This document shows, piece after piece, positions 344 to 49,070 of a stretch of DNA of 64,000 bases. The notes beneath the pieces were generated by a model. That model worked only from the letters and a program-made list of their open reading frames with translations. It had not been told where the DNA came from and ran no database searches. The position numbers and the translations under genes were made by a program. The first letter of the stretch is position 1. Each line of letters opens with the position of its first letter. Origin of the DNA: Escherichia phage phiWec188; the sequence record LC739537.1; one strand, written 5' to 3'.

Positions 344-900
344 AAATAAAAGAATTAAGTATTCCTGGTCTGGTTGTCTTTAAACCTCAAGTTTACAAAG
401 ATGATCGTGGTTCCTTCACGGAGACGTTTAACGAGAAGATTTACGAAGAGGTTATTGGCAAACAAACGTTTGTTCAGGATAACCATTCATTCTCTACTTT
501 AGGTGTTCTTCGCGGAATGCACTTTCAAGTAAATAACCCGCAAGGTAAGCTTGTACGTTGCACACGAGGTGAAGTTTTTGACGTGGCTGTAGATCTTCGT
601 GAAGGTAGTCCAACCTTCGGACAATGGGAAGGTGTGATTCTTAGTGGGTGTAACAATAAACAGTTGTGGATTCCACCTGGCTTTGCACATGGTTTTGTTG
701 TAACCTCTTATGAAGCCAACTTTGAATACAAGTGCACCAACTACTACGATCCGGCATCTGAACGTAGTTTGTTGTGGAACGATCCTACTGTGAATATTGA
801 TTGGGGTTTTGATATGATTTTCAATGATGAGAATTTTGTACCCATCATTTCGGAAAAGGATGCACAAGCTAAAACACTGAAGGAGCTTATGGGATCATGA
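340..900 (+). CDS. rmlC: dTDP-4-dehydrorhamnose 3,5-epimerase
   Basis: 186 aa; cupin-type RmlC motifs ([36 protein letters not shown]); ATGA overlap with neighbours. Confidence 0.9.
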
Positions 901-1739
901 AAACATATTTAGTATTGGGTGGTAATGGTCAATTAGGTCAGGCACTGCGTAAAGTGGTGCCGGAGAATGTGACTTTGGTGTATCCAGAAAAGCGTGTAGA
1001 TATCACCAGTTTTGAAGCTGTGCGGAAAGCGATCATGGAAACCCCAAATATTAACGGTGTTATCAACTGTGCGGCATACACTGCTGTGGACAAAGCCGAG
1101 ACAGATGTTGATGCAGCTATGGCTGTAAATTTACACGGGGCAGCTAATATTGCTGCCTTCTGTAAGGCTTGGGATATTGACATGGTGCATATTTCTACTG
1201 ACTATGTGTTCAACAGCGATAAACCGTTGTTCCATCAGGATGAACCCAACCCTATCAATGTTTACGGGTTATCTAAAAGTTTGGGTGAAGCTGCTGTTCG
1301 TGGTATCTACCATAAAGCTTTTATTATCCGCACGGCTTCTGTGTATAGCGAGTTTGGTAACAACTTCCTGAAGACTATGGTATCTCGTTACAACGATGGT
1401 CAAAGAAACTTCTCGGTAGTTGCAGATCAAACATCTCGACCAACTTATGCCCCAGATTTGGCTAAGATGATTTTCCAAGTGTTGGAAACAGGATATAACA
1501 CCCGTACTTTGCATTACGCTGGGAACATCACTGTTTCGTGGCACCAGTTCGCAAAAATGATATTGACACGTATGCCTGAATCTGTTATTATACACCCGAC
1601 CTCTGCTGCAACCTATAATTCGGCAGCGATGCGACCAGCAAAGTCTATACTAATTACGTCTGGTTGGAACGAACCTTCAAGCGTCGGACAAGGTATTGAA
1701 GAATCTTTAGCAGTATTACTTAATAAGGAGAGAGCATGA
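897..1739 (+). CDS. rmlD: dTDP-4-dehydrorhamnose reductase-like (RmlD family, NAD(P)-binding)
   Basis: 280 aa; N-terminal Rossmann motif LVLGGNGQLG as in RmlD; follows rmlC in an operon-like arrangement. Confidence 0.7.
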   Translation: MKTYLVLGGNGQLGQALRKVVPENVTLVYPEKRVDITSFEAVRKAIMETPNINGVINCAAYTAVDKAETDVDAAMAVNLHGAANIAAFCKAWDIDMVHISTDYVFNSDKPLFHQDEPNPINVYGLSKSLGEAAVRGIYHKAFIIRTASVYSEFGNNFLKTMVSRYNDGQRNFSVVADQTSRPTYAPDLAKMIFQVLETGYNTRTLHYAGNITVSWHQFAKMILTRMPESVIIHPTSAATYNSAAMRPAKSILITSGWNEPSSVGQGIEESLAVLLNKERA

Positions 1740-1996
1740 ATTTTGTAATTTACGGCAAACCAAATTGCCAGTTCTGTGAAATGTCCAAACAACTCTTAAC
1801 TATGCGTGAAAAAGAGTTTGAATATCTGACATTAGATCAAGATTATGATTTTGAAGTGATGACTCAAGCAGTGATCGCAGCAACAGGAATTGCACCTCGC
1901 ACCTTCCCGCAGATCTTTGTGGAAGAGCTTGGAGCAGTAACCCACGTAGGCGGTTTTACCGAACTGCGTGATTTCATGGCTCAAATTGCGGAGTAA
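1736..1996 (+). CDS. glutaredoxin/thioredoxin-like protein (T4 NrdC-like)
   Basis: 86 aa; CQFC redox motif near N-terminus; C-terminal GGF-x-ELRDF resembles T4 NrdC. Confidence 0.75.
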   Translation: MNFVIYGKPNCQFCEMSKQLLTMREKEFEYLTLDQDYDFEVMTQAVIAATGIAPRTFPQIFVEELGAVTHVGGFTELRDFMAQIAE

Positions 1997-2001
1997 TATA
2001 A

Positions 2002-2151
2002 ATGAAAAGTAAACAGAAACGTAAGATCTTTTCTCGTGCTTTAGCAAACGAGCTTAAGTCCAACACAAAGAAGACGAAACCGAAACGTGAGACTTCTCCT
2101 GAACATTTACTGTTTGACGAACTGGATCACGGAGTAGAGGACGACGAATAA
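2002..2151 (+). CDS. small basic hypothetical protein (49 aa, not in ORF track)
   Basis: ATG 6 nt after upstream stop; Lys/Arg-rich N-terminus, acidic C-terminus; fills an otherwise empty gap. Confidence 0.4.
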   Translation: MKSKQKRKIFSRALANELKSNTKKTKPKRETSPEHLLFDELDHGVEDDE

Positions 2152-2159
2152 AGGAAAAC

Positions 2160-2663
2160 ATGGCTAAAAAAGTAGTAGATGAGTTTGACATGTTGGCTGT
2201 TGATGAAGGACTGAAGCTGACTGTTTACCCAGACACCTTGGGATATTGGACAGTCGGCATTGGACACCTCTTAACTAAAAAGAAAGATAAGGCGGAAGCT
2301 ATTCGTATTCTGGATGCTCTTGTTGGTCGCAAGACTAACGGAGTTATCACAGAGAAAGAAGCCCGTGCTATCTTTGCTGACGATGTTGAAAAGGCGAAAA
2401 AACAGATTAAAAACAGTTCCATTCTTGCCCCAATTTATGATAAGGTGAGTGAAACCCGTAAACTGGCAATCATCAATATGGTGTTCCAGTTGGGGTTAAC
2501 CGGAACGGAAGGCTTTAAAAATAGCTTGACTTTAATCAGTAATTCGTACTATACTCAAGCTGGTAAAAACATGAGAGCCAGTAAATGGTACTCTCAAACG
2601 CCAAACCGTGCAGAACGAGTAATCAAGGTTCTAACATCTGGGACTCTTGATTCTTACAACTAA
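2160..2663 (+). CDS. endolysin, T4 e-type lysozyme (GH24)
   Basis: 167 aa; near-collinear with T4 lysozyme (DEGLKL, GIGHLLTK, NGVIT, INMVFQ, WYSQTPNRA). Confidence 0.93.
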   Translation: MAKKVVDEFDMLAVDEGLKLTVYPDTLGYWTVGIGHLLTKKKDKAEAIRILDALVGRKTNGVITEKEARAIFADDVEKAKKQIKNSSILAPIYDKVSETRKLAIINMVFQLGLTGTEGFKNSLTLISNSYYTQAGKNMRASKWYSQTPNRAERVIKVLTSGTLDSYN

Positions 2664-2690
2664 CAAAGGGGCGCAAGCCCCTTCTATAAG
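2664..2690 (+). terminator. intrinsic terminator/attenuator hairpin between lysozyme and phoH
   Basis: aggggcGCAAgcccct stem-loop followed by tctat; sits just before the phoH RBS. Confidence 0.45.
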
Positions 2691-2700
2691 GAGTGCTACT

Positions 2701-3456
2701 ATGGGAAAAACAGCTACCGCTAAATCACCGCGCCAGAAGTTAGCTTCTAATGCGAAAGTAGAAAGTCGTTATGCTGCAAAAGCAGTTGGAAATGATGACT
2801 ATCGTTTAGATGGGTTTTCACCAGAAGGAGATCAGCAGCAAATCGTTCAAAGTATGATCTGGAATGATCTTACAGTCGTAAATGCTCCAGCAGGGACAGG
2901 CAAGACTTCCGTGACTTTATGGAAAGCTTTGCAGATGCTTCGAGCAGGAGATTTCCGTAAGCTTCTTTTTATTAAAAACCCGACTGAAGTTGGTGATGAT
3001 CAGATTGGTTTCCTTTCGGGAGATAAAACTGATAAACTGGCGGCGCACTACGAATCAACCAAACGAATCTTCCAGCAGTTTATGACTGCAAACAAATTAG
3101 AGAATGATATTGGTTCCGGTAAGATTGAACTTAATATCCCGAACTACCTACTGGGTGCTACCCTGGACAACACTATCGTGATCATTGATGAAGCACAGCT
3201 TATGTCTCCAGAAACATTAAAACTTCTGGTAGAGCGTGCAGGGATCAACACTCATGTTGTTGTTCTTGGAGATGTTCGTCAAACCTACGCTATCAAAAAG
3301 CGTGCAAACGGTTTGAAAGATCTTCTTGACAAAGTTGCCCCTGAAGGTGAAGATGGTGTTCGTGTCCCTCTGGTAGACTTTATCGGTTATGTGCAGTTAA
3401 CCACAGATGACAACAAACGATCTCGTTTGTCTAAGTTCATCACGGAAATTTATTAA
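2701..3456 (+). CDS. phoH: PhoH-like ATPase
   Basis: Walker A (NAPAGTGKTS) and Walker B (IVIIDEAQ) in PhoH arrangement; ATG 2701 preceded by aaggag. Confidence 0.85.
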   Translation: MGKTATAKSPRQKLASNAKVESRYAAKAVGNDDYRLDGFSPEGDQQQIVQSMIWNDLTVVNAPAGTGKTSVTLWKALQMLRAGDFRKLLFIKNPTEVGDDQIGFLSGDKTDKLAAHYESTKRIFQQFMTANKLENDIGSGKIELNIPNYLLGATLDNTIVIIDEAQLMSPETLKLLVERAGINTHVVVLGDVRQTYAIKKRANGLKDLLDKVAPEGEDGVRVPLVDFIGYVQLTTDDNKRSRLSKFITEIY

Positions 3457-3494
3457 TAACAAAAAGCAAGGATGCTTTATTAAAGGGAGGGTCG

Positions 3495-3992
3495 ATGGTA
3501 CAGACAATTATAGATCGGACTGGTATTGATGAATGTTACCAAACTGGGCTTGTGAAGCCTAACGAGTTCCGACAGATTTGCGTGAATCATATTGAGAAAG
3601 AAATTGCACTAACTTTGGAGAACCTTACCCTCCGAGACAAGCTGTCAATGTTTGTGGCTTGGTGTAAAGGTGAAGATTGGTTATTGGCCCATTTTCAAGA
3701 ACTTTCTGATAGTCAAGAAGGCTTATATGAATGTATAATAGGAATAGCTGGCTCCAATCCTGAACTTCTCCATTTGGAAGAAGAAGAGGCGAAGTTACTG
3801 TTCTTAAGCAACATGTTCAATCGTAAAGCATTGCTTGTTCGTGAGTGTAGTGATCTTTTAAATCATCCACTGGCGATCACAAACGAAATACTGGTTGACA
3901 AAGAGACATTACGTGCGATAGACTATCTGCGCAAGTATGTCAACGGCGGGAAAGCAGTTCTTAAAACATTAACAGAGGAGGAAGCAGAATGA
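3495..3992 (+). CDS. hypothetical protein
   Basis: 165 aa ORF; RBS-like aaagggaggg upstream; ATGA overlap with next gene. Confidence 0.5.
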   Translation: MVQTIIDRTGIDECYQTGLVKPNEFRQICVNHIEKEIALTLENLTLRDKLSMFVAWCKGEDWLLAHFQELSDSQEGLYECIIGIAGSNPELLHLEEEEAKLLFLSNMFNRKALLVRECSDLLNHPLAITNEILVDKETLRAIDYLRKYVNGGKAVLKTLTEEEAE

Positions 3993-4675
3993 CTACAATT
4001 ATCGCAACCAAAAACAAGATCCTTAGCGACGGTAAAGTAACTTTCGGTGGTCGTGTAGATTCAACCAATTTCAAGAAAGTACGTAAGATTGGGGATTATC
4101 TCGTAGGTGGCGCAGGGCGTTTAACTTCGGTTTTAGCTTTCTTCCAGTGGTTCGAACAGAACCTGCAATGTGAAGCGGCGCGTGAGGCAGTGCCTGGGTT
4201 GATGATCAGTTCTAACCCTGATCGTGAAGATGAAGAGTTTATTGCTCTCGTTGTTCACCCAGACGGACGTATTTTCCTGCATGAAGGTAATGATCCTACC
4301 CGTGCATACCCAATCGACGAAGAATACTACGCAGTAGGCAGTGGTTCCGATTTTGCGCTCGCAGCACTGGATGGTGGTGCTTCTCCAGAAGCTGCTATGG
4401 AGGTTGCCAAGAAGCGTGACGCATACTCTGGTGGCGAAACATTCGTTGAAGAATTAGACGAGATCATCGAACTGACTGACGAAGATCTCGAAAACTTCAC
4501 CAAACAAGAACTGATCAACCTGCTTAAGTTTGGCGATCCTGCTGGTGAAGAAACTCCTCGTGACGTGGCAGGTGACGAGACGGCAGGAGAAGTTGTAGTA
4601 GAAAAAGACTTGACTTCAAAACCGGAAAATATTAATCTCGTAAATGTAGCGGATTTCGAGAATCCCGCTTCTTAA
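3989..4675 (+). CDS. HslV/proteasome-like Ntn-hydrolase peptidase with acidic C-terminal extension
   Basis: 228 aa; N-terminal MTTII (Thr nucleophile after Met), KKVRK, GGAG, AVGSGSDFALAAL match HslV pattern; acidic tail about 70 aa. Confidence 0.55.
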   Translation: MTTIIATKNKILSDGKVTFGGRVDSTNFKKVRKIGDYLVGGAGRLTSVLAFFQWFEQNLQCEAAREAVPGLMISSNPDREDEEFIALVVHPDGRIFLHEGNDPTRAYPIDEEYYAVGSGSDFALAALDGGASPEAAMEVAKKRDAYSGGETFVEELDEIIELTDEDLENFTKQELINLLKFGDPAGEETPRDVAGDETAGEVVVEKDLTSKPENINLVNVADFENPAS

Positions 4676-4680
4676 TAAAA

Positions 4681-4702
4681 CTGCCCCTTCGGGGGCATTT
4701 CT
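4681..4702 (+). terminator. intrinsic terminator
   Basis: gccccTTCGggggc hairpin followed by atttctt, right after the stop at 4675. Confidence 0.6.
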
Positions 4703-4720
4703 TACGCAGAGGAGATTACT

Positions 4721-5158
4721 ATGTTGAACGTTCCTGTTAAATTCGTCGATAGCTGTGTTAATGCTTACCAACAAACTTGTAAACGTGCCTCAAACTGTTT
4801 GCAGTCTTTGATTCAAACGCGGTACGTGATCCAAAAGAAAAGAAAGTGGTTTGGTAAGGATTCTTATAGTGTTAATGCGTTCGGGGAGTATCAACTCCAG
4901 TATGACGATAACATGCAACACATCTTAGAGTTTTTACTGATAAAAGATAAAATCTCCCCTGCGGATTACCAGTTACTTAAATTCTACGATCAGAGTTTGT
5001 CTATTGAGGAAGTTATTCAAGATATCCTTTCTCGTAAGACAGATAAGAACACTGTTGGTATTACAAACTTAGAGATGCAATTGCTCAATGAGATCTTTTT
5101 GTTTGTGGAAGATGAGTCTGTAACTAAGGAGGAGCTTTTAAATGGCTTTAAGCTATGA
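4721..5158 (+). CDS. hypothetical protein
   Basis: 145 aa ORF; gaggag RBS upstream. Confidence 0.5.
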   Translation: MLNVPVKFVDSCVNAYQQTCKRASNCLQSLIQTRYVIQKKRKWFGKDSYSVNAFGEYQLQYDDNMQHILEFLLIKDKISPADYQLLKFYDQSLSIEEVIQDILSRKTDKNTVGITNLEMQLLNEIFLFVEDESVTKEELLNGFKL

Positions 5159-5660: not shown

Positions 5661-5897
5661 ATGGCTAAATTTACTATGACCGTTTCTATTGATTTTGATG
5701 ATGAGGACGGAGGCATTAACTTAGGTATTGCTCAGAGCCTGGAAGGTGATTTGAACCCGACACAAGCAGCTATGGCGGTATTCTTTAAAGATACCATAAC
5801 AGTTACAGCAACACATTCTGCAAATCAAACTGTAGATTACGGTAGCATGGTTCAAGCCTTGGTTGATGCTCAAAACGGTGAAGATTGGGATGATTAA
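5661..5897 (+). CDS. hypothetical protein
   Basis: 78 aa ORF; aaggag RBS upstream. Confidence 0.5.
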   Translation: MAKFTMTVSIDFDDEDGGINLGIAQSLEGDLNPTQAAMAVFFKDTITVTATHSANQTVDYGSMVQALVDAQNGEDWDD

Positions 5898-6100
5898 TGG
5901 CTTATAATTATTATTGCGTTTACGCAAATGAAGCAAAGAAAGGCGACACTGGCACTAACGTCTATGCAGAATCAGAAACACATGCAAAAGAAATTGGTGC
6001 GATCCTTCTGTCACGTTGGACAGGTGGTAACTATTCTGCTGTGGATTTGTTCGCAGAAATGGATGATACCATCCAAGAAGATACTATCACCACAACCTGA
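5897..6100 (+). CDS. hypothetical protein
   Basis: 67 aa ORF; ATGA-type overlap with upstream gene. Confidence 0.45.
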   Translation: MAYNYYCVYANEAKKGDTGTNVYAESETHAKEIGAILLSRWTGGNYSAVDLFAEMDDTIQEDTITTT

Positions 6101-6121
6101 TATTGCTTGAAGTAGTTGGTA

Positions 6122-6152
6122 CTCTCCTTGTTTCGGCAAGGAGGGTATTTTT
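6122..6152 (+). terminator. intrinsic terminator
   Basis: ctccttgTTTCGGcaaggag hairpin followed by ggtattttt. Confidence 0.6.
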
Positions 6153-6164
6153 AAGGAGGAAGTT

Positions 6165-6356
6165 ATGCAAGAGAATGAAGAGGTAGTTGTTAAAAAGTTC
6201 CCGACACGTACACAGGCAGTCAACTTTGCTTCTGATTTGCTTGTAGATGTGGAAGGAGTTCTCATTAGACATGAAGGGGATTCCTGGAATGTCTCTTATA
6301 ACGTAAACAGATCAATTATCTATTTAGGAGAAGAGAACTTCTCTCGTATAGATTGA
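6165..6356 (+). CDS. hypothetical protein
   Basis: 63 aa ORF; aaggagg RBS upstream. Confidence 0.45.
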   Translation: MQENEEVVVKKFPTRTQAVNFASDLLVDVEGVLIRHEGDSWNVSYNVNRSIIYLGEENFSRID

Positions 6357-6370
6357 TCGAAGGAGTAGTT

Positions 6371-6943
6371 ATGCGTTCTACTTACACAGGTAAGATTAAT
6401 TCTGGTATCATTTTAGCAGTAGCAGGAATCATCAGCAAAACTTTCAAAGTGGCAAACCTACCAGAGTGTGTAGATTTTGACCACGTATTCAATCCATTAA
6501 ATCCTTCTCGTTGTGTTGTTCGTAGCAACATTGAGAATCCAAACGAGAACTTGTTTTATGTAACATCGCCTTCACAAAGTATTCTAAACCAAGTGGAGGC
6601 TAAAATTATTACCGAAGGTAGTTATTTCTCATTGCTACCTTGTAAATCGGTGGCGATTGAAGATAGTATCACCTTCGCAAATAACTTGGTCTTGACCATG
6701 TTCATGGTTTCTGATAAAGACTGTGGAGAGGATATGGTTTTAGCTGTAAGGAATGTTTATGACACATTGGGTATTGCTTATAGCTGTAAGTTGTGCGATG
6801 ATTATAAATCTTGTTCAGACTTTTACATAAATGGTGTTCGGGTATGTCGTGTTGAATCCTACTGGGTGCAAGACACATACGTAACAGTAGCGAACGTGAT
6901 CAATGAACCTATGTTCAGCCACGCTTTAGCGTTAATCATTTGA
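6371..6943 (+). CDS. hypothetical protein
   Basis: ORF 6353..6943 in track; ATG 6371 chosen because of aaggag RBS. Confidence 0.5.
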   Translation: MRSTYTGKINSGIILAVAGIISKTFKVANLPECVDFDHVFNPLNPSRCVVRSNIENPNENLFYVTSPSQSILNQVEAKIITEGSYFSLLPCKSVAIEDSITFANNLVLTMFMVSDKDCGEDMVLAVRNVYDTLGIAYSCKLCDDYKSCSDFYINGVRVCRVESYWVQDTYVTVANVINEPMFSHALALII

Positions 6944-8017: not shown

Positions 8018-8310
8018 TGTATAAAATTACAATCGTAGAATCTGTGGGCGAGATTCGTAAAGAAATTATTCTGGAGACGGAAGATCTGGAACTGGTACGT
8101 GAAATCATAATTGGGAAGGATGTAGATAAGGTTGAGTCGGACGCTCCGAATCTGATGATCGATGATCAATATGCAGAATTTCGTCGTATTTTTGAGGAGG
8201 AAAGGAAGAAGTGGGGCAAAGAACCACACGTTTTTCGTCCTTATAATCCATATCCTTCTGGTGATCCGTGGATCATGACTAACAGAAACCCGTTTGAAAT
8301 AACCTGTTGA
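8017..8310 (+). CDS. hypothetical protein
   Basis: 97 aa ORF; ATGA overlap with phosphatase gene. Confidence 0.5.
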   Translation: MYKITIVESVGEIRKEIILETEDLELVREIIIGKDVDKVESDAPNLMIDDQYAEFRRIFEEERKKWGKEPHVFRPYNPYPSGDPWIMTNRNPFEITC

Positions 8311-8318
8311 GGTGGCTT

Positions 8319-8897
8319 ATGAGCAACCTATTTTACACAGGTGTGGGAAGTCGAGAGATAACCCACGAAGAATGGGATTTAATGGTCGCTGTAGCAAAGT
8401 GGTTGGCTAACTGTGGTTTTACTTTACGTTCAGGTAATGCAAACGGTAGTGACTCTGCTTTCGAAACTGGTGTAGAAGAATCTAAAAACAAAACTCTCAA
8501 GGAGATTTATATCCCTTGGGAGAAGTTTGAAGGTAATGATATCCCAGGTGAGAAAATAGTGCTTGCTAATCCTGACAGTATGAACTATGCTATCAGTCTC
8601 CAGTGGATAAAGGAAATCCATCCAGCATTTGATAAACTTAAACAAGGTGCACGTAAATTGCATCAACGTAACGTTCATCAGGTGTTGGGACAAGACCTGG
8701 AGCATCCTGTGCCTTCCTTATTCTTATTGGCATGTTCCAAAGAGGATAAGAAGGGAGATGTTATGGGTGGAACACGGACGGCGTGGCTCATCGCTAAAGC
8801 TAATAACGTTCCATGTTTTAACTTACGTGGTAAAACAAAGGAAGAACTTTATGCTTTTCTTAAACCGTTGGTCAAGGGGGCAATCAGTGGCAATTAA
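8319..8897 (+). CDS. Rossmann-like SLOG/DprA-type protein (putative)
   Basis: ORF 8307..8897; YTGVGSR and SGNANGSDSAFETG motifs resemble the DprA/SLOG fold; start ATG 8319. Confidence 0.4.
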   Translation: MSNLFYTGVGSREITHEEWDLMVAVAKWLANCGFTLRSGNANGSDSAFETGVEESKNKTLKEIYIPWEKFEGNDIPGEKIVLANPDSMNYAISLQWIKEIHPAFDKLKQGARKLHQRNVHQVLGQDLEHPVPSLFLLACSKEDKKGDVMGGTRTAWLIAKANNVPCFNLRGKTKEELYAFLKPLVKGAISGN

Positions 8898-10388: not shown

Positions 10389-10415
10389 TAACCCGCTTCG
10401 GCGGGTTTTTTATTG
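10389..10415 (+). terminator. intrinsic terminator
   Basis: acccgcTTCGgcgggt hairpin followed by tttttatt. Confidence 0.7.
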
Positions 10416-10423
10416 TGTGAGTG

Positions 10424-15123: not shown

Positions 15124-15144
15124 AGTAATCTCCTTTGTTCAGAT

Positions 15145-15170
15145 ATGAAAAAACCCGCCGAAGCGGGTTC
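15145..15170 (-). terminator. intrinsic terminator (minus strand)
   Basis: Minus strand reads aacccgcTTCGgcgggtttttt. Confidence 0.65.
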
Positions 15171-19490: not shown

Positions 19491-19844
19491 TCATAATCTC
19501 CCTCCATCTTTAAGACGACTCTTAACCCAGTGCAGACGATCTGGATCTGTGTGTTGTGAAGCATTTTCCGCATCCAGTAAATAAGACTTTCTTCCGAACG
19601 GATATGTTTCACATAGCTCTGCTTCAATAAACTGATTATACATCTCTTTCATAGTATCTTCGATTAAATACCAGTCACCTTCTGGAAGGTCTAAATCATA
19701 CAACCAATACTCAAGATTGCCACACAAGCCTACAGAAGAGCTAAACACGTCTTCCATAACAAGGCCCGTCTCATCTCGATTTTCAGCCCAAGATAACCAA
19801 GCCTGATAAAAATCTAAAAGCAGTTTACTTGATGCAATCTTCAT
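19491..19844 (-). CDS. paralog family A member 1 (FY-WL-W / GLC-NL / PF / RL-WV family)
   Basis: ORF 19491..19880; shares LLDFYQAWLSW, GLCGNLEYW, YPFG, RLHWVKSRL with eight other ORFs in 19-36 kb. Confidence 0.55.
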   Translation of the reverse strand: MKIASSKLLLDFYQAWLSWAENRDETGLVMEDVFSSSVGLCGNLEYWLYDLDLPEGDWYLIEDTMKEMYNQFIEAELCETYPFGRKSYLLDAENASQHTDPDRLHWVKSRLKDGGRL

Positions 19845-19846
19845 AC

Positions 19847-20032
19847 TCACTCTCCTACACTTTCTGGTGTGCCATCCCAAGCACCTAAGACTTCTTTCAG
19901 GTGTGCACGGGGTTCTTTAAAATACTCTTCCATTTTATCCAGAAGATCGTCTGTGTTTGGGCTGTATCCCAACATCCCACGTAAAACTCTTTCTTCTTGC
20001 AAGACCAACCATCTATGATAGCTTCGAATCAT
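19847..20032 (-). CDS. hypothetical protein (start uncertain)
   Basis: ORF 19847..20164 overlaps neighbour; internal ATG at 20032 gives a compact 61-aa gene. Confidence 0.35.
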   Translation of the reverse strand: MIRSYHRWLVLQEERVLRGMLGYSPNTDDLLDKMEEYFKEPRAHLKEVLGAWDGTPESVGE

Positions 20033-20999: not shown

Positions 21000-21008
21000 G
21001 TTACCTCC

Positions 21009-21344
21009 TCAAGAACGATCGAGTTTCATTAAAAATACAATCATAGCTGCACGCAGGGGCTTATCGTCTCCACGGGACGGTACACCTTCTGTTTTCGCAA
21101 GCCAACCGCGAGGAAAACCATCTTCCCCTGTTACAGGACTGATACAAATCCTGTGTTTTACTATGATAGCCCAAGCATCTGCTGGATCATTGCAGTAATC
21201 ATACCAAGTGTAATTGCCGTTGCAGTCATTTCCCACTGATCGTCCATCTGCATTGTGCGGATAACCTAAAGGCTTGACACCGTGGACTGCTGCAAACACA
21301 CGCTTGTTGATTTCAAAATCACTCATTACTCCATATTCTGTCAT
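21009..21344 (-). CDS. hypothetical protein
   Basis: 111 aa ORF; ATGA overlap with upstream gene. Confidence 0.5.
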   Translation of the reverse strand: MTEYGVMSDFEINKRVFAAVHGVKPLGYPHNADGRSVGNDCNGNYTWYDYCNDPADAWAIIVKHRICISPVTGEDGFPRGWLAKTEGVPSRGDDKPLRAAMIVFLMKLDRS

Positions 21345-21670
21345 GTTTTCTCCTTGTTTTTGGATACTGGAAGGATGTTGATCATAACTACACCGTTATA
21401 ATCATAAGTATCGTTAATTTGAGTCTCTACTTCCCGAATATCATCCAGAGTGGGAGGCCAATTTGTAAATTGTACATCAATATTCCCCACACCCAGACTC
21501 TTACCCTCCCTCGGCCTGTAGTTGTACACAAAAACCGTATTGTAGGAGAGTTTTTGATGTTTGTTACGCTTCTTAAAAGTGCGGTCTAAGGCGTAGATGC
21601 TTCCTATGACACATACCGCTACAGCAACAACCACAATGTTAAAATAGAGTTCTTGTAGAATTGCACTCAT
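21341..21670 (-). CDS. membrane protein
   Basis: 109 aa ORF with N-terminal TM helix (NIVVVAVAVCVIGSIYAL). Confidence 0.5.
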   Translation of the reverse strand: MSAILQELYFNIVVVAVAVCVIGSIYALDRTFKKRNKHQKLSYNTVFVYNYRPREGKSLGVGNIDVQFTNWPPTLDDIREVETQINDTYDYNGVVMINILPVSKNKEKT

Positions 21671-21672
21671 TG

Positions 21673-22002
21673 TTATTTACCCCCTTTCAGTTTTGATTTA
21701 ACCCATGCCAACCGTTCTTTGTTCATATGTTGCGTGCCGTGCTCATAATCCTGCATATAAGCTAAGTCACCAAATGGGTACAAGGTGTCTTGGAAATCTT
21801 TGAAAAGCATTTCTGCAAATGCTTCGGTAACTTCGTCAATTTCTTTTAATGAAAACCCTTGTTCCAGTAACCAGTAAGACAAAGAGTCGCAAAGCCCAAC
21901 AAGTGTGCTGAAGGGTTTGACATTCTCTCTTTTCGGAGCCACTTCAGCCCAGGCTAACCATGCCTTAAGAAATTGTTGGATAATCACTTCGTTCTTTGTC
22001 AT
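21673..22002 (-). CDS. paralog family A member 2
   Basis: FLKAWLAW, GLCDSLSYW, YPFG, RLAWVKSKL; 109 aa. Confidence 0.55.
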   Translation of the reverse strand: MTKNEVIIQQFLKAWLAWAEVAPKRENVKPFSTLVGLCDSLSYWLLEQGFSLKEIDEVTEAFAEMLFKDFQDTLYPFGDLAYMQDYEHGTQHMNKERLAWVKSKLKGGK

Positions 22003-22010
22003 TTTAGCTC

Positions 22011-22685
22011 CTATTTAATGTTCAGTTTGTTAAGCAGACGTTGAACCGTATAAGGGTGCCATGTGGTACTGCCACGAACAGTTTCAATTTTCTCTTCAGT
22101 AAAGATCTCTGCGATTCGAGTCAGAGATGCTCCTGCTTTCCTCATTAACGTAACTTTATCACGAAGCTTCTCGGCATACAAGGTGCTTTTATCATTTTTT
22201 CGAGATTGTCTGTAATCTTTACGAGACTCTTTATATTTTGGAGATGCAGATCCTAAGAGAATACCTTTGCTCTTAGCTACTGCCAAACCTTTTTTGATAC
22301 GATCTGCCATACCACGTACTTCCTGTTCTGCAAGGACAGATAGAAGCTGAATAACCATCTTGTCTGCATCCGGCATGATCGCAATCTTAACGTCAATCAT
22401 TTCCAAGAGGATTGCTACCGAGGCGTTGTTACGACCTAAACGGTCCACTTTAGCTACCAAAAGCGTTGCTCCTGTAGCTTTACACATCTCAACAGCCTTG
22501 ACAAGTTCTTTACGTTGCTTCCAGTCGCCTTTACCTGAATAAAATTCAGAAAACTCTCCGATCACTTCAGCCTCCGGCACAGATTCCAAGAAATAACGGA
22601 TATCGTTTTCCTGGCTCTGCATACCATACTGGGCTTCACCTTTCTTCTGTTTAGACAAACGGCTGTAAACAACAAACTTTTTCAT
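22011..22685 (-). CDS. serine recombinase (resolvase/invertase family) with C-terminal HTH
   Basis: N-terminal YSRLS with catalytic Ser context, VAKVDRLGRN motif, C-terminal HTH-like GASLTRIAEIF; about 224 aa. Confidence 0.7.
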   Translation of the reverse strand: MKKFVVYSRLSKQKKGEAQYGMQSQENDIRYFLESVPEAEVIGEFSEFYSGKGDWKQRKELVKAVEMCKATGATLLVAKVDRLGRNNASVAILLEMIDVKIAIMPDADKMVIQLLSVLAEQEVRGMADRIKKGLAVAKSKGILLGSASPKYKESRKDYRQSRKNDKSTLYAEKLRDKVTLMRKAGASLTRIAEIFTEEKIETVRGSTTWHPYTVQRLLNKLNIK

Positions 22686-22695
22686 GATCAACTCC

Positions 22696-22923
22696 TCAAT
22701 CGTTATCAGGATTCCATTTTACAAACTTGAAGCAGTTATTGTCAAGGAATTTATTGGCATCTTTTTCCTGTTTCCAAACGGTGCATTGTTCTTTAAGGGC
22801 TATCTGCTCATTCTGCACGTCTGATACCGCATTAGCAAAGAGGATCAGAAATCCAAAAAAGACCAACATCAATAACAGATTAAAGAAAGTTTGAAAACTC
22901 ATACATCCTCCCATTTGATCCAC
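22696..22923 (-). CDS. small membrane protein
   Basis: 75 aa ORF with hydrophobic core (FNLLLMLVFFGFLILFA). Confidence 0.45.
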   Translation of the reverse strand: MDQMGGCMSFQTFFNLLLMLVFFGFLILFANAVSDVQNEQIALKEQCTVWKQEKDANKFLDNNCFKFVKWNPDND

Positions 22924-23153
22924 AGAATCATTTCTTCAACGTAAACCTCTTTACCTTTGTTATTGATGAAAGTGTATTCTATGAACTCCGCTGTATACTT
23001 TTTGTTGTATTGCTCCGCTGCTGGGATCGGACACTTTGTCATACGTGTCTCAACCCATTGACGATGAATCGTTGCCTTGTTTTTGGGGTCAAACGGGTGT
23101 AAATAGTGCGGTTCTCCCTCTTGACTATGCCCCATTTTATTCTTCTTCGCCAT
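22899..23153 (-). CDS. hypothetical protein
   Basis: ORF 22899..23273; ATG 23153 preceded by ggaggagg; avoids long overlap with upstream gene. Confidence 0.45.
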   Translation of the reverse strand: MAKKNKMGHSQEGEPHYLHPFDPKNKATIHRQWVETRMTKCPIPAAEQYNKKYTAEFIEYTFINNKGKEVYVEEMILWIKWEDV

Positions 23154-23481
23154 GCTGCACCTCCTCCAGACGGTCATACACCCAAGCAAGACGATCGAAG
23201 TTTTTGTGTTGGGTGCCGGACTTCTTCTCAATCCAATAACAAGGAATCCAACCTGACAGATCCCACTCGCCATCGAACGGATAGTTCCATTCTAAACCTT
23301 CCGCTTCAAACTGCTCTACCATTTCATCAGAGAGGGAAAGATACAAATCTTGGTCTTCCCCGCAATACACTTCCACTGCATGACACAAACCGCAAGCTTT
23401 GATGTTTTCGTTCGGATCTTGGCTCATAGCCTGATCCAACCACCACTCATAAAATTCCAGTAAAGCTTCACTTGACCTCAT
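23137..23481 (-). CDS. paralog family A member 3
   Basis: LLEFYEWWL, GLCHAVEVY, YPFDG, RLAWVYDRL; ATG 23481 with RBS. Confidence 0.55.
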   Translation of the reverse strand: MRSSEALLEFYEWWLDQAMSQDPNENIKACGLCHAVEVYCGEDQDLYLSLSDEMVEQFEAEGLEWNYPFDGEWDLSGWIPCYWIEKKSGTQHKNFDRLAWVYDRLEEVQHGEEE

Positions 23482-23854
23482 TTTCTTCCCCTCCCCCTTT
23501 TCCAATAAGCGGCGAAGCCGCGATCATCGACTTATAGACAACTTCGGCTGTTCGGGTTAGCCCCGTCCAGTCCTTCGCTGCCTCCAACATTTCTGGGGTA
23601 GGCTCTTTCGGGACCAAGACATACCCTTCTGGGATACACATTCCACTCGCTTTCTTTTCAGCTTCTTCCGACATAACTTGCCACACTCCGTAGCTGCAAT
23701 TCTCGAACAAACAATAGAGTTCAGATCCTTCATCATCCACGACAATGAAACAGTTCTCATCTGCTACTTTGGCGTTGTAAATCCGACCTATGGTCAAATA
23801 GTCTCGGACATTAATAAACTTAGAGGCAAGAAACTTCACACGAATGTTTTTCAT
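23468..23854 (-). CDS. hypothetical protein
   Basis: 128 aa ORF. Confidence 0.5.
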   Translation of the reverse strand: MKNIRVKFLASKFINVRDYLTIGRIYNAKVADENCFIVVDDEGSELYCLFENCSYGVWQVMSEEAEKKASGMCIPEGYVLVPKEPTPEMLEAAKDWTGLTRTAEVVYKSMIAASPLIGKGGGEENEVK

Positions 23855-24090
23855 TTCTTAAACTCCGAAAAGCAACCCAAAGAGATGACCCCGCCATTAT
23901 AGACGATAGCAAACTGGCACCCTGTCTTTGTGTCTGTGATGATGTAATCTAAAGCCCCAGTCATGCCAGTTTGAACAAAGCGATCCTTGGTTACAACTTT
24001 TGAGTCCGAGAAGCCGTTAACTTCCGGCACAGTGTCTGCCATAACAGCAGGAGTCACCAGAAACAATGCGATCAGTAATGCCTTTTTCAT
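23851..24090 (-). CDS. small secreted protein (signal peptide)
   Basis: MKKALLIALFLVTPAVMADT signal-peptide-like N-terminus; 79 aa. Confidence 0.5.
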   Translation of the reverse strand: MKKALLIALFLVTPAVMADTVPEVNGFSDSKVVTKDRFVQTGMTGALDYIITDTKTGCQFAIVYNGGVISLGCFSEFKK

Positions 24091-25318: not shown

Positions 25319-25645
25319 TCAACCAATTATTTCTTCTGCTACACGTTCTTTTACCCAGTTCACACGATCCACATTCAAATGACAACGGCTTTTTTCCGCT
25401 TCTAAGGTGTACTTTCCAAAATTACTATTGAAAGGCAACACCATAACCAAATCTTTGTGGTAGAACTGCTCATGCATTTCATCCAGTACAGGTTCGTATC
25501 GTTCGCTTTCTCCCATATCGTAAAAATCATAGAGGTTCGTGCACAAACCTGTGCAACGGGTGAACGGTTTACCTTCAGGAGCACCAGCTTCCAACCATGC
25601 CAAATACGTGCGGTAAAATGTTAATAGTTCTTCGCTCATTTCCAC
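25319..25645 (-). CDS. paralog family A member 4
   Basis: LLTFYRTYLAWLEAGAP, GLCTNLYDF, LPFN, RVNWVKERV; 108 aa. Confidence 0.55.
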   Translation of the reverse strand: MEMSEELLTFYRTYLAWLEAGAPEGKPFTRCTGLCTNLYDFYDMGESERYEPVLDEMHEQFYHKDLVMVLPFNSNFGKYTLEAEKSRCHLNVDRVNWVKERVAEEIIG

Positions 25646-32988: not shown

Positions 32989-33507
32989 TTAGTCAAATAT
33001 CACATTACTTACGAGTTTCGCTGTGCTACGCAGAGTATAAATCTCCACAAGCTTCCCTGGACTCTCTTTCTTCGCTTTCGTGGCTCTTTCTTGCGCCTCT
33101 GAAAAAGATGATACAGTATGCACTACTACGTAGTCAACAATAACTGCAAACTTTTTAGGCACAATATCTGCATCAGGGCGATCGTCGTGTGCGGAAACCT
33201 CCTTGCCTGGCTGCGGTGCCAGCGGCGGCAAGCCCACCATTAACAACGGACCTCCGTCAAAGAAATATCCGATCTCATCGTGCCCAATAAGGAAGCGATC
33301 CATTTGAGCATCACCTACTCCCTGATCCCAGAACAGCTTCTTATCTTCTACGAAGATGATAAGAGATAGGACATTCCCGTAAGCGTCTGTTTTGACTACT
33401 TCAAACCAAAACTCTCCGATCGCTTCAGCCAACTTTTTAGAAATTGATTGAAACAACTCTTGGTACGTGCCTTGTCTGAAACGATAGATATTACCTGGTT
33501 TAAACAT
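32989..33507 (-). CDS. paralog family B member 2
   Basis: 172 aa; VGLPPLAPQP, AVIVDYVVVHTV, EIYTLRSTAKLV shared with 32464..32976. Confidence 0.55.
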   Translation of the reverse strand: MFKPGNIYRFRQGTYQELFQSISKKLAEAIGEFWFEVVKTDAYGNVLSLIIFVEDKKLFWDQGVGDAQMDRFLIGHDEIGYFFDGGPLLMVGLPPLAPQPGKEVSAHDDRPDADIVPKKFAVIVDYVVVHTVSSFSEAQERATKAKKESPGKLVEIYTLRSTAKLVSNVIFD

Positions 33508-35557: not shown

Positions 35558-35814
35558 TTATCATTGGTATTCCCTATCAATTATTCCATATATACCTGTT
35601 ATTTTTGACACCCCTTTGGTCAAATATTAATCGGCAAAATATCTGGGGGGAGAGATTATTTCGATACCCTCTGTTCCTGCGATTTATCGGCAAGAATATC
35701 ATCGGCAAAGAGACAGAAAAGCCTTTGGTAGCAAGGATTTATGGCGAGTACGTCAGGACTGCTGAACGCGAATTTTCCGGCCCCTCCACTTCTGCGCGCC
35801 GGAATCTTCAAATA

Positions 35815-36020
35815 TCAATGAGAATAATTATCATTATCATTCGCATTCAATAACTTAGGCGATCTTTTCCCCTGCTATAAGGTTGGGCCTAACTTAAGCA
35901 CTACTTTTTAAACAATCCTTTATCAATCAACTACTTAACAACCTAAACATATGATTACTACGGTGTAAAGGTGCCGCCCATAACAGACTACCTATAAAAT
36001 AAATGAGAATGATTATTATT
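35815..36020. repeat. two copies of a TGAGAAT-N-ATTCTCA-type palindrome (Fur-box-like)
   Basis: atgagaataattatcattatcattcg near 35817 and aatgagaatgattattattc near 35998; same motif recurs six times at 48.85-49.07 kb. Confidence 0.45.
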
Positions 36021-36317
36021 CAGACAATTCTTACAACAAATCGACCAATAAATCAAGATTTTTCTGATTTTATTTACGTTTAAGAGAACGTGCTCAACAT
36101 ATCCGCCATAGGCGGCTATCTTTCCCCCGCAAACATTAAGCCTTTATCTTTCATCTTTCTGTATATCTGTACACTATGCAACCTGTCGCTATTCGCTCAT
36201 GTTGCTACGTGCTAATCCTTCACCATGCTAATGATGATCACACTGAACGATAGTGATAACTCATGTAATAATTACATTGATTATTATATTACGCTTAACT
36301 ATTCTTACATACAATGC

Positions 36318-36440
36318 TAATAATAAGCCAGCGTAATTAGTGTAAGCGTAATACGCTTGCAATAATTGCAAGCTACATAATCACAAGAAATAACTATCAC
36401 CGATAGTTATGATTGTGGGGGTGTAGTTGGCTTATTATTA
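36318..36440. repeat. large imperfect palindrome with a perfect 19-bp core
   Basis: gcttgcaatAattgcaagc (36355-36373) flanked by inverted 11-mers aataataagcc / ggcttattatt about 110 bp apart. Confidence 0.5.
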
Positions 36441-36519
36441 GCTCGCTACGTGTCCGGCGTAGCGTGCTAATGATGAGGCTTGGAATGATTCATTTTACAA
36501 TTATTACAGTCTTCACTAT

Positions 36520-36990
36520 TTCGGCAATAGGCACTATTTTACTAATAGTTGTTATTTTAATGATTTCATTTGTTATCGTTAGTTAGTTGGTTGTTTTGTC
36601 GTGTTATCGTTATCTTGCTTAGTATTCATCATGGTTTGATTGTTTGTCGTTATCAATCATCTTTCTATTATTCCTTTGATTATGATTAGTTTGCTTATTG
36701 TTTTAGGTTGTTGGTTGGTTAGTTGTTGCGAACTATTATCAACATTATAGTTATGCACTTATATTGCATAGATACGCAAGGTTAGATGATAATGGTTATC
36801 ATTGCACTGGAAAGGAGGAAAACAGCCTTTTTCGGTTGTTTGTTGTTGGTTGTTGATCGATTTTAACCGCTCTAAATAGCTCTCTAACAGCCTGTTGCCC
36901 TGGGAGGTATGGTTATTCGTTTGCTGGTTGATTAGCTCGATACCGCGATTTATTCATTTTTGTTCTGTGTCGGTTTTTCATAGGCGGAAG
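36520..36990. repeat. G+T-rich low-complexity region with iterated gttatcgtt / ttggttgtt motifs
   Basis: Plus strand almost devoid of C/A runs; repeated gttatcgtt, ggttggtt; no ORF of 60 aa or more across 35.85-36.9 kb. Confidence 0.5.
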
Positions 36991-37009
36991 CTATCAACAT
37001 TATTTGGAC

Positions 37010-37040
37010 AAAAAGAAAGGGCGCTTAGTGCGCCCCTTGT
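37010..37040 (-). terminator. intrinsic terminator (minus strand)
   Basis: Minus strand: ggggcgcACTAAgcgccc then tttcttttt; just 3' of gene 37052..37471. Confidence 0.7.
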
Positions 37041-37051
37041 TTTGTTGTCGA

Positions 37052-41463: not shown

Positions 41464-41649
41464 TTATTTGACTATGTGACGATCATTATATTCAGTGTAA
41501 AACTCGCAACCATCGTCACGACTATCAAGTTTAACAATGTAACCAGTTTGATAACGTTCAATAGATACCATTGCATAAAACTTACCATTCAGGATATTTC
41601 TAACCAGATCGCCTTTTACCAATTCTTTCGTTTTCTTGTAAGTAGTCAT
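41464..41649 (-). CDS. hypothetical protein
   Basis: ORF 41464..41700; ATG 41649 downstream of hairpin. Confidence 0.5.
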   Translation of the reverse strand: MTTYKKTKELVKGDLVRNILNGKFYAMVSIERYQTGYIVKLDSRDDGCEFYTEYNDRHIVK

Positions 41650-41669
41650 GATGTTTTCTCTTCTGTTAG

Positions 41670-41726
41670 GCGGGGCGCTTGTCGCCCCTATGTGATACAT
41701 CTTATCAGGTTGATTCAGCTTGTCAA
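41670..41726 (-). promoter_or_regulatory. promoter plus 5' hairpin cassette (stem variant ggggcg/cgcccc)
   Basis: TTGACA, spacer, TGATAAGAT, then ggggcgACAAGcgcccc hairpin. Confidence 0.5.
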
Positions 41727-48847: not shown

Positions 48848-49070
48848 CCTGCCCGTCATTCTCTAAATGAGAATGATTATCATTTACCTTATTGAATAAA
48901 AATCAATCTTATTTGGATAGTTGAATGAGAATCAATCTCATTCGCAAGGTGAGAATAAATCTCATTTACGCTATTGAATGCGAATCATTCGTATTTACCA
49001 TGTTAAATGAGAATCATTATCATTCTCATTCGTATTTCGATTTTAAGTGAGAATAATTCTCATTTCGGTA
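48848..49070. repeat. six tandem copies of the TGAGAAT-N-ATTCTCA palindrome (Fur-box-like)
   Basis: aatgagaatgattatcattta, aatgagaatcaatctcattcg, ggtgagaataaatctcattta, aatgcgaatcattcgtattta, aatgagaatcattatcattctcattcg, agtgagaataattctcatttcgg. Confidence 0.55.

Follow-up and report, generated by a model that had tools for sequence, protein, structure and literature searches.

A predicted small serine recombinase of Escherichia phage phiWec188 with an apparently exchanged C-terminal domain and a relocated gene

The recombinase gene and its surroundings

The 64,000-nt stretch of Escherichia phage phiWec188 DNA analysed here (the window) contains a gene for a serine recombinase, which is surrounded by small open reading frames (Table 1). 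The gene begins with an ATG that is preceded, at a distance of 7 nt, by the Shine-Dalgarno sequence GAGGAG, and an alternative TTG start is located at position 22691. The protein is identical to BDU13898.1 of phage phiWec190, whose 675-nt CDS at 148937–149611 of LC739539.1 is a 100% match and is labelled 'hypothetical protein' in that record. Pfam family PF00239 (Resolvase) matched residues 5–141 (E = 1.7e-16; 61 bits against a cut-off of 23.3), and residues 181–219 gave a sub-threshold match to positions 13–50 of the PF07508 (Recombinase) profile (16.3 bits, cut-off 21.1). The best PHROG match was PHROG 125, 'DNA invertase' (1.5e-31), with PHROG 95, 'integrase', also matching (7e-20). A search of NCBIfam yielded only matches far below threshold (YneB, XisF and Mpi), the model for the master invertase Mpi scoring 17 bits against a cut-off of 272. 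The motifs VVYSRLSKQ (residues 5–13) and VAKVDRLGRN (residues 77–86) are present. The original prediction had assigned the gene to the resolvase/invertase family on the basis of YSRLS and VAKVDRLGRN, and this assignment is confirmed by PF00239, PHROG 125 and the motifs.

Residues R9, S11, D81, R82, R85, E122 and R129 were invariant both in an alignment with gamma-delta resolvase and Hin and in an alignment with 46 homologues (47 sequences). The first five correspond to R8, S10, D67, R68 and R71 of gamma-delta resolvase, and E122 and R129 represent the acidic residue and the arginine of helix E. Loss of the catalytic serine and arginine residues, which had been raised as evidence that would count against the assignment, was not observed on alignment. 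An AlphaFold2 model of the protein (mean pLDDT of 89.6) showed an alpha/beta catalytic domain, a long helix E (residues 109–139) and a C-terminal five-helix bundle. The helices of this bundle span residues 149–163, 166–173, 175–183, 188–197 and 211–221, after which the model ends, and the last two probably form a helix-turn-helix, as had been predicted for the C-terminus. Foldseek searches with the model gave a probability of 1.0 to Sin, gamma-delta and TP901-1, among others. The profile match, the catalytic residue set and the modelled fold all place the protein in the serine recombinase superfamily, and we regard it as an intact small serine recombinase that is predicted from its sequence to be catalytically competent.

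The gene is separated from the upstream open reading frame by 10 bp and from its other neighbour by 8 bp. Among the small proteins encoded by its neighbours, only NinX and DUF7202 could be recognised, the others having no known function, and the Pfam families detected within 10 kb on either side were limited to DUF7202, NinX, DUF2158 and SIR2, in agreement with the earlier description of a recombinase among tiny early-type genes. A predicted sigma-70-like promoter lies inside the 3' end of the upstream 68-aa gene, approximately 30 nt before the recombinase start. An equivalent predicted TTGACA-type promoter was found directly upstream of the orthologue in ESCO13, phi92, Klebsiella phage phi1_175008, Shewanella phage 1/40, Vibrio phage 1.063.O and ICP1. 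Early transcription of the recombinase gene by host RNA polymerase, driven by this TTGACA-type promoter of its own, is probable.

The same region appears to contain at least four paralogues of one small-protein family on the minus strand (19491–19880, 21673–22002, 23137–23481 and 25319–25645). The second and third of these match PHROG 2510 and flank the recombinase gene; the first and fourth were recognised by eye from the motif FY..WL.W...GLC...YPF...H...R..WV..RL.

Table 1 Features of the recombinase locus and of the corresponding empty locus in the window
Feature	Position	Strand	Basis
Serine recombinase CDS (224 aa + stop)	22011..22685	-	ORF list, PF00239, PHROG 125
Catalytic domain and helix E, residues 1–146	22248..22685	-	Invariant columns, AlphaFold2 secondary structure, comparison with ESCO13
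Fast-evolving C-terminal helical DNA-binding domain (predicted), residues 147–224	22014..22247	-	Weak PF07508 match, AlphaFold2 helices, divergence from ESCO13
Sigma-70-like promoter (predicted), TTGACA-18-TAAAAT	22716..22745	-	Consensus scan, 11/12 positions
Ancestral locus, empty in the window	6101..6164	+	64-bp spacer with terminator-like hairpin

Relatives of the recombinase, domain exchange and relocation

Tn3/gamma-delta resolvases and Sin share with the phage protein the catalytic domain, helix E and the Ser/Arg/Asp set (sizes 183–224 aa). Small serine resolvases were its best sequence matches in the PDB (E ~1e-5), and Sin (3pkz, 5c32) and gamma-delta (2gm4, 1gdt) were its best Foldseek matches. 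Identity to Tn3, gamma-delta and Sin is, however, only ~20–25%, and, in contrast to these enzymes, the phage protein has an 11-residue insert after the catalytic serine and a deletion of ~10 residues before helix E. It also differs from the Tn3/gamma-delta enzymes in that its C-terminal domain is not HTH_7 and in having neither an upstream res nor a transposon or plasmid context. The invertases Hin, Gin, Cin and Pin, two of which (Gin and Cin) are encoded by phages, are members of the same superfamily, but no adjoining invertible segment, crossover inverted repeats or orientation polymorphism was found for the phage gene. Its product is ~23% identical to Hin and has a different DNA-binding domain, with no match to the Hin-type Pfam model HTH_7 at E ≤ 1. 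For the large serine integrases (SPbeta, Bxb1, phiC31 and TP901-1), Foldseek aligned ~250 columns (9dxh, 9iu2 and 4bqq), and the C-terminal helices of the phage protein resemble the start of the integrase 'recombinase domain', which fits the weak match to PF07508. The protein is nevertheless less than half as long as these integrases (400–700 aa) and has neither a zinc ribbon nor a coiled coil nor the remainder of the recombinase domain. IS607-type enzymes have an N-terminal MerR-like helix-turn-helix and a C-terminal catalytic domain, whereas the phage protein shows the reverse order. Compared on the tested features that define invertases, Tn3-type resolvases, large serine integrases and IS607 enzymes, the recombinase thus fits none of these four groups.

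Full-length kin of the same length class (33–41% identity over ~97–100%) were found among transposon and plasmid resolvases, comprising proteins that are TniR/Bin-like by context and 'recombinase family proteins' of small plasmids. A search of 1.84 billion representatives yielded 2,163 clusters at E ≤ 1e-10, mostly of 215–245 aa, matching over the full length at 33–40% identity. The contexts sampled included cryptic plasmids of 5.8–7.3 kb (33–38% identity over 97–99% of length), a position beside a Mu-like transposase and an IstB-like ATPase, which corresponds to a Tn552/Tn5053-type arrangement, and a prophage in which the gene adjoins a baseplate-family gene. The plasmid and transposon homologues thus reside in replicons or transposons for which resolution of multimers or cointegrates is expected, their functions themselves having been assigned from context only. 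The setting of the phage gene differs from theirs in being a lytic phage with linear, terminally repeated DNA.

Positions 21000–24000 of the window are 100% identical to phiWec190 (LC739539.1, 150,689 bp), which NCBI places in Stephanstirmvirinae, Phapecoctavirus, and for which a genus 'Wecvirus' has been proposed (PMC12695924). The ends of that record, where the assembly overlaps itself by 149 bp, are arbitrary and lie inside the window. With tblastn, recombinase homologues were detected in 162 phage records (148 near full length) covering Phapecoctavirus, phiWec190 and its close relatives, Justusliebigvirus, Klebsiella phages, and Vibrio and Shewanella myoviruses. Amino acid identity is 97–100% in phiWec190 and close relatives, 72–74% in Phapecoctavirus (phAPEC8, ESCO13 and others), ~55% in Justusliebigvirus (phi92 gp053), ~50% in the Klebsiella phages and 31–39% in the Vibrio and Shewanella myoviruses. 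The numbers of records sharing the flanking DNA (129 and 132) are about equal to the number bearing the recombinase, which indicates that nearly every member of Stephanstirmvirinae carries the gene. Comparison of its presence among related phages, which the original prediction had proposed, thus revealed a near-universal gene.

The two domains of the protein have diverged to very different extents. The catalytic domains of the phiWec190 and ESCO13 proteins share 94.5% amino acid identity, and their dN of 0.045 and dS of 1.38 (dN/dS ~0.03) indicate strong purifying selection; the C-terminal domain of the window protein is only 35% identical to that of ESCO13 (dN of 0.71, dS of 1.43). Nucleotide identity to ESCO13 amounts to 80–90% from the upstream gene through codon ~148 and drops to background below position ~22232, that is, in the C-terminal domain and the downstream genes. 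Among the homologues as a whole, identity of the C-terminal domain soon falls to ~30–35%. This pattern points to a modular protein whose predicted DNA-binding domain has been swapped at codon ~148 relative to Phapecoctavirus, and target recognition is thus predicted to differ among close relatives, whatever the target.

Two copies of the gene deserve separate mention. The orthologue in Schickermooser (NC_048196; positions 6001–6650 of the locus examined) contains several frameshifts in its first ~80 codons and is identical to that of ESCO13 outside this part. It is either a pseudogene or the product of a local sequencing error; real frameshifts would mean that the phage can be cultured without a functional gene. 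Vibrio phage ICP1 isolate 2017_DRC_48 carries a distant homologue with 33% identity over the catalytic domain, in a block at positions 745–4857 of the locus between 'GP30' and 'GP41'. The genes of this block have no legacy gp numbers and are therefore apparently absent from reference ICP1, so that the block may be isolate-specific.

The gene does not occupy the same position in all lineages. In a tblastn comparison of phi92 open reading frames with the window, phi92 1–26.8 kb was collinear with the window from 36 kb to 1, with a few early genes shuffled. In phi92 and Klebsiella phi1_175008, the recombinase gene lies in a block of enzyme genes between those for HslV and a Ser/Thr phosphatase, in the order gp054 - recombinase - gp052 - gp051. 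Shewanella phage 1/40 has the same neighbourhood, HslV ... recombinase ... DprA-like gene, the last of these being homologous to window 8307–8897, and this synteny is therefore kept from Shewanella 1/40 to phi92 and the Klebsiella phages. In the window, the homologues of phi92 gp054 (5897–6100) and gp052 (6165–6356; E = 6e-7 and 9e-7) are adjacent and separated only by the short spacer listed in Table 1; in the window and in ESCO13, the recombinase gene is found instead in an oppositely oriented early block. These gene orders indicate that a promoter-plus-gene unit relocated once, in the ancestor that Phapecoctavirus shares with the phiWec190 lineage. The identity of the recombinase to its phi92 counterpart (55%) falls within the range of neighbouring core orthologues (37–80%), so that foreign re-acquisition need not be invoked to explain the relocation. 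As to the earlier suggestion of a small mobile insertion, conservation across the subfamily and beyond speaks against a recent or sporadic insertion, whereas the occurrence of the promoter-plus-gene unit at loci that differ by genus bespeaks movement. Given that GenBank records of relatives already name a resolvase, invertase or recombinase, the existence of the recombinase is not new; what is newly brought out is the apparent relocation of the gene with its own promoter, the swapped C-terminal domain, and the plasmid and transposon kin that are its closest non-phage relatives over the full length.

Recombination sites and possible roles

We searched for recombination sites at several scales. 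Between 16 and 29 kb, all inverted and direct repeats were matches of 19–34 nt at 70–84%, which is chance level, and an 11-nt perfect pair at 22867/22958 was rejected as a site because it is expected by chance. Inverted repeats across the 64-kb window consisted only of terminator hairpins (10390/15139) and promoter- or leader-like strings (10445/53796), and the whole circularised 150.5-kb genome contained no candidate sites among its repeats, only promoters, terminators and strings resembling ribosome binding sites. A 22/23-nt direct repeat, with one copy inside the recombinase gene (22550–22572) and the other at 33408–33430, was attributed to chance because it does not extend further and because a similar heptapeptide is encoded in both genes. 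A search of 19.5–24 kb for 12+12 dyads with spacers of 0–6 nt returned none with at least 11 of 12 positions matching and nothing above chance; three matches reached 10/12 (0.9 expected), two of them representing a single terminator hairpin. For multimer resolution, a further role offered by the original prediction, no res-like region with multiple subsites was found upstream of the gene, the 140 nt there holding the promoter and no dyads, although distant full-length homologues do sit in resolvase-like settings. Dyads in the upstream gaps of orthologues were present only in Klebsiella and Vibrio phages and were discarded as sites, given that they are not shared.

Rearrangement of the surrounding DNA was likewise not apparent. 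No inverted segment was detected relative to close relatives, ESCO13 or phi92, the window being collinear on one strand. We found the identical protein encoded on 21 contigs of independent origin (public runs containing the phage include SRR4426298, SRR29999947, SRR28924782 and SRR34880808), and the nine distinct assembly places among them were collinear over ±10 kb with no minus-strand piece. The original prediction had offered an inversion switch as one role, together with inverted-repeat crossover sites near the gene and inverted segments in related genomes as ways to examine it; no credible repeat pair was found within 6 kb on either side, and the related genomes showed no inverted segments. 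Of the refuting outcomes listed in the original prediction, missing recombination sites were thus observed, and structural variation was absent at the level of assemblies. Comparison of window 21000–24000 with 5,426 complete E. coli genomes gave no match, and thus no sign of integration.

Homology alone cannot decide the function of the recombinase. The reading that we tentatively prefer, and which we consider possible rather than probable, is that the enzyme is of the resolvase type and acts on replicating phage DNA at a site far from its gene. The C-terminal helix-turn-helices of a dimer would recognise a crossover site in another part of the phage genome, for which the ~1.5-kb non-coding terminal region is a plausible place. 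Given the direct terminal repeats, a single site per genome unit would be directly repeated in concatemers and, if located within the terminal repeat, also in infecting DNA. Recombination between two such direct copies, either in the terminal repeats of infecting DNA or in neighbouring units of replicating multimers, would yield monomeric circles for early replication, a role that would be helpful but dispensable. Cre/loxP of phage P1 offers a comparable case, in which a site-specific recombinase is proposed to cyclise terminally redundant infecting DNA and to resolve multimers. The analogy is functional only: Cre belongs to the tyrosine recombinases and acts at the known site loxP of a temperate phage, whereas no site was found for the recombinase described here. 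Direct terminal repeats have been described for genomes of the subfamily (PMC12695924; also the phi92 annotation), and the recombinase has been asserted to keep concatemers as single genomes (PMC10282059); our literature search found no experimental work on the gene.

We prefer the resolvase reading because of the contexts of the homologues, namely small plasmids and a Tn552/Tn5053-like module, in which lone serine recombinases usually resolve multimers or cointegrates, and because of the direct terminal repeats. It is also in line with the identity and integrity of the protein, its near-universal conservation, its regional synteny, the low dN/dS of the catalytic domain and the presence of an own promoter in each lineage examined. 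Our confidence in it is limited by the outcome of the site searches, to which the tight 10-bp spacing to the upstream open reading frame adds, and by the motifs of the terminal region, which do not co-vary with the DNA-binding domain but are identical in phages whose DNA-binding domains are only 35–40% identical. The Schickermooser frameshifts suggest that the enzyme may be dispensable, the distant homologue next to a baseplate-family gene in a prophage is also compatible with an invertase, and terminally repeated phages such as T7 are not known to need such an enzyme.

The lack of a target in the phage genome fits an enzyme whose target instead lies in foreign DNA (host chromosome, prophage, satellite or competing phage) and which would break or rearrange that DNA early in infection. 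An apparent early host-type promoter, a DNA-binding domain that evolves far faster than the catalytic domain and is exchanged as a module at the domain boundary, as would be expected if it tracked changing targets, and a distant homologue in a possibly isolate-specific block of ICP1, a phage with known satellite conflicts, all accord with such a role. Fast evolution of the DNA-binding domain could, however, equally mean relaxed constraint, there is no known host site and we found no precedent in the literature, and we therefore consider this reading unlikely. We would judge similarly a composite view, that of a core early recombinase of strictly lytic, terminally repeated myoviruses with a non-adjacent target, either in the phage's own terminal region, so that replicating DNA is cyclised or monomerised, or in host or satellite DNA, to which it would be re-targeted in evolution by domain swaps at the helix E boundary. 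Less probable again is a semi-selfish cassette, a moron-like promoter-plus-gene unit that is maintained, moves from time to time and benefits the phage little. The unit does sit at different loci in phiWec190/Phapecoctavirus and in the phi92, Klebsiella and Shewanella phages, with the old locus precisely empty, and the frameshifted Schickermooser copy and the ICP1 block are further points in its favour. Across the subfamily, though, only a single relocation is seen, and no lineage shows the gene in more than one position. Nor has the recombinase alone moved, as a few further early genes also differ in order. No terminal repeats flank the gene, its divergence from phi92 is in the range of that of its core neighbours, and its catalytic domain is under strong purifying selection.

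An invertase that flips a phage segment, as do Gin, Cin and Hin in the manner of a tail-fibre or promoter switch, would agree with the best PHROG name and with the naming of several GenBank records, and a perfect 15-nt inverted repeat does surround a 97-nt core at 36316–36442. This repeat, however, is the outer stem of a structured element that is kept by compensatory changes, and it has the same orientation in nine genomes of four lineages. Together with the absence of repeats bracketing any segment, the collinearity of relatives and assemblies, the sub-threshold invertase models, the unmatched HTH_7 and the low identity to Hin, it renders an inversion switch improbable. Still more remote is an integrase through which the phage could at times enter lysogeny or a carrier state, a role to which the N-terminal pattern and the C-terminal helices, similar to the start of large serine integrases, might point. 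The bacterial assembly GCA_022969815.1 also holds a whole close relative of the phage as one contig (JALJSQ010000012.1, 151,297 bp; ~98% nucleotide identity over the 20 kb compared). This contig is free-standing rather than an integrated prophage and could reflect contamination or a carrier state. The protein has neither a zinc ribbon nor a coiled coil in its mere 224 aa, and the family has been described as lytic with no prophage matches (PMC10282059); the lack of a match to the surrounding 3 kb in 5,426 complete E. coli genomes largely refutes an integrase role. Possibilities not listed here, including a non-catalytic DNA-binding role, together carry somewhat less weight than the preferred reading.

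Recombinase genes are routinely read as a warning of lysogeny when phages are screened for therapy, and Phapecoctavirus and Justusliebigvirus, relatives of this phage, are common therapy candidates. That the gene is a conserved family trait, with no integrated copy of the surrounding region found in E. coli genomes and no switchable segment found, argues against its use as a marker of a temperate phage. The puzzle is that a lytic lineage keeps an active-looking recombinase under strong selection while its DNA-binding domain changes. The target, once found, would reveal either an added step in the phage replication cycle or a new way to act on host DNA, and the natural domain swap marks a tolerated junction for the engineering of re-targeted small serine recombinases.

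Repeats and structured elements elsewhere in the window

The non-coding terminal region (~1.5 kb, 35560–37050) includes the predicted left genome end and direct terminal repeat, at window 35760–36094 on the minus strand: position 1 of phi92 and its 343-bp direct terminal repeat align here, LC739539.1 having been opened elsewhere. Near the predicted right genome end lies a conserved structured element of ~175 nt (window 36316–36475, plus-strand sense), which is ~80% conserved in 132 phage records across Stephanstirmvirinae. It consists of six helices, comprising the outer stem GCTAATAATAAGCCA/TGGCTTATTATTAGC and three further hairpins, one of which is made up of three stacked helices. Across nine genomes, 98.6% of cells were paired and compensatory double changes were present in 16 of 57 pairs, a level reached by none of 500 shuffles, with slid controls giving at most 6. 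Invariant G-U pairs occur only on the plus strand, which suggests that the element is RNA. A search of Rfam with the terminal region gave no credible match, and the element could be a new phage non-coding RNA or a structure for origin function or packaging.

The terminal region also contains copies of a 19-nt dyad, AATGAGAAT.ATTCTCATT, for which we found nine matches (two overlapping) against 0.07 expected by chance. Their positions include 35817–35835, 36002–36020 and 48866–49064, and they cluster in the terminal-repeat region, overlapping promoter-like sequences, and in an 82-nt tandem repeat at 48.86–49.02 kb. Four of the matches overlap, within 2–3 mismatches, matches to the E. coli Fur-box consensus, and one copy is conserved in the terminal repeat of phi92. 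Such dyads may, from their sequence, provide iron- or Fur-dependent control of early promoters. They were rejected as recombinase targets on account of their odd centre and their likeness to a Fur box. GCTAAT repeats and the 15-nt inverted repeat were set aside as well, being parts of the structure kept by compensatory changes; none of these terminal motifs was adopted as a target, given their identity in phages with very different recombinase DNA-binding domains.

A GC-rich hairpin, AACCCGCTTCGGCGGGTTTTTT, is present at 10390–10420 and, in inverted orientation, at 15139–15169, with one copy located where blocks of plus- and minus-strand genes converge. These hairpins are probably transcription terminators.

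Between 38288 and 48230, the window contains at least 12 copies of a ~75-nt unit, each preceding a tiny minus-strand gene. On the minus strand the unit reads TTGACA-N17-TAAGATGTATCAC, followed by the hairpin GGGCGGCAATGGTGCCGC and then a ribosome binding site, and the copies constitute a predicted array of strong early promoters with a conserved 5' stem-loop. The sole difference between the window and LC739539.1 is the absence from the window of ~800 bp (one repeat unit, 129122–129922 of that record). The junction coincides with a 53-nt direct repeat at window 41645–41697, and the missing unit reflects either variation in repeat number or an assembly difference in the promoter array.
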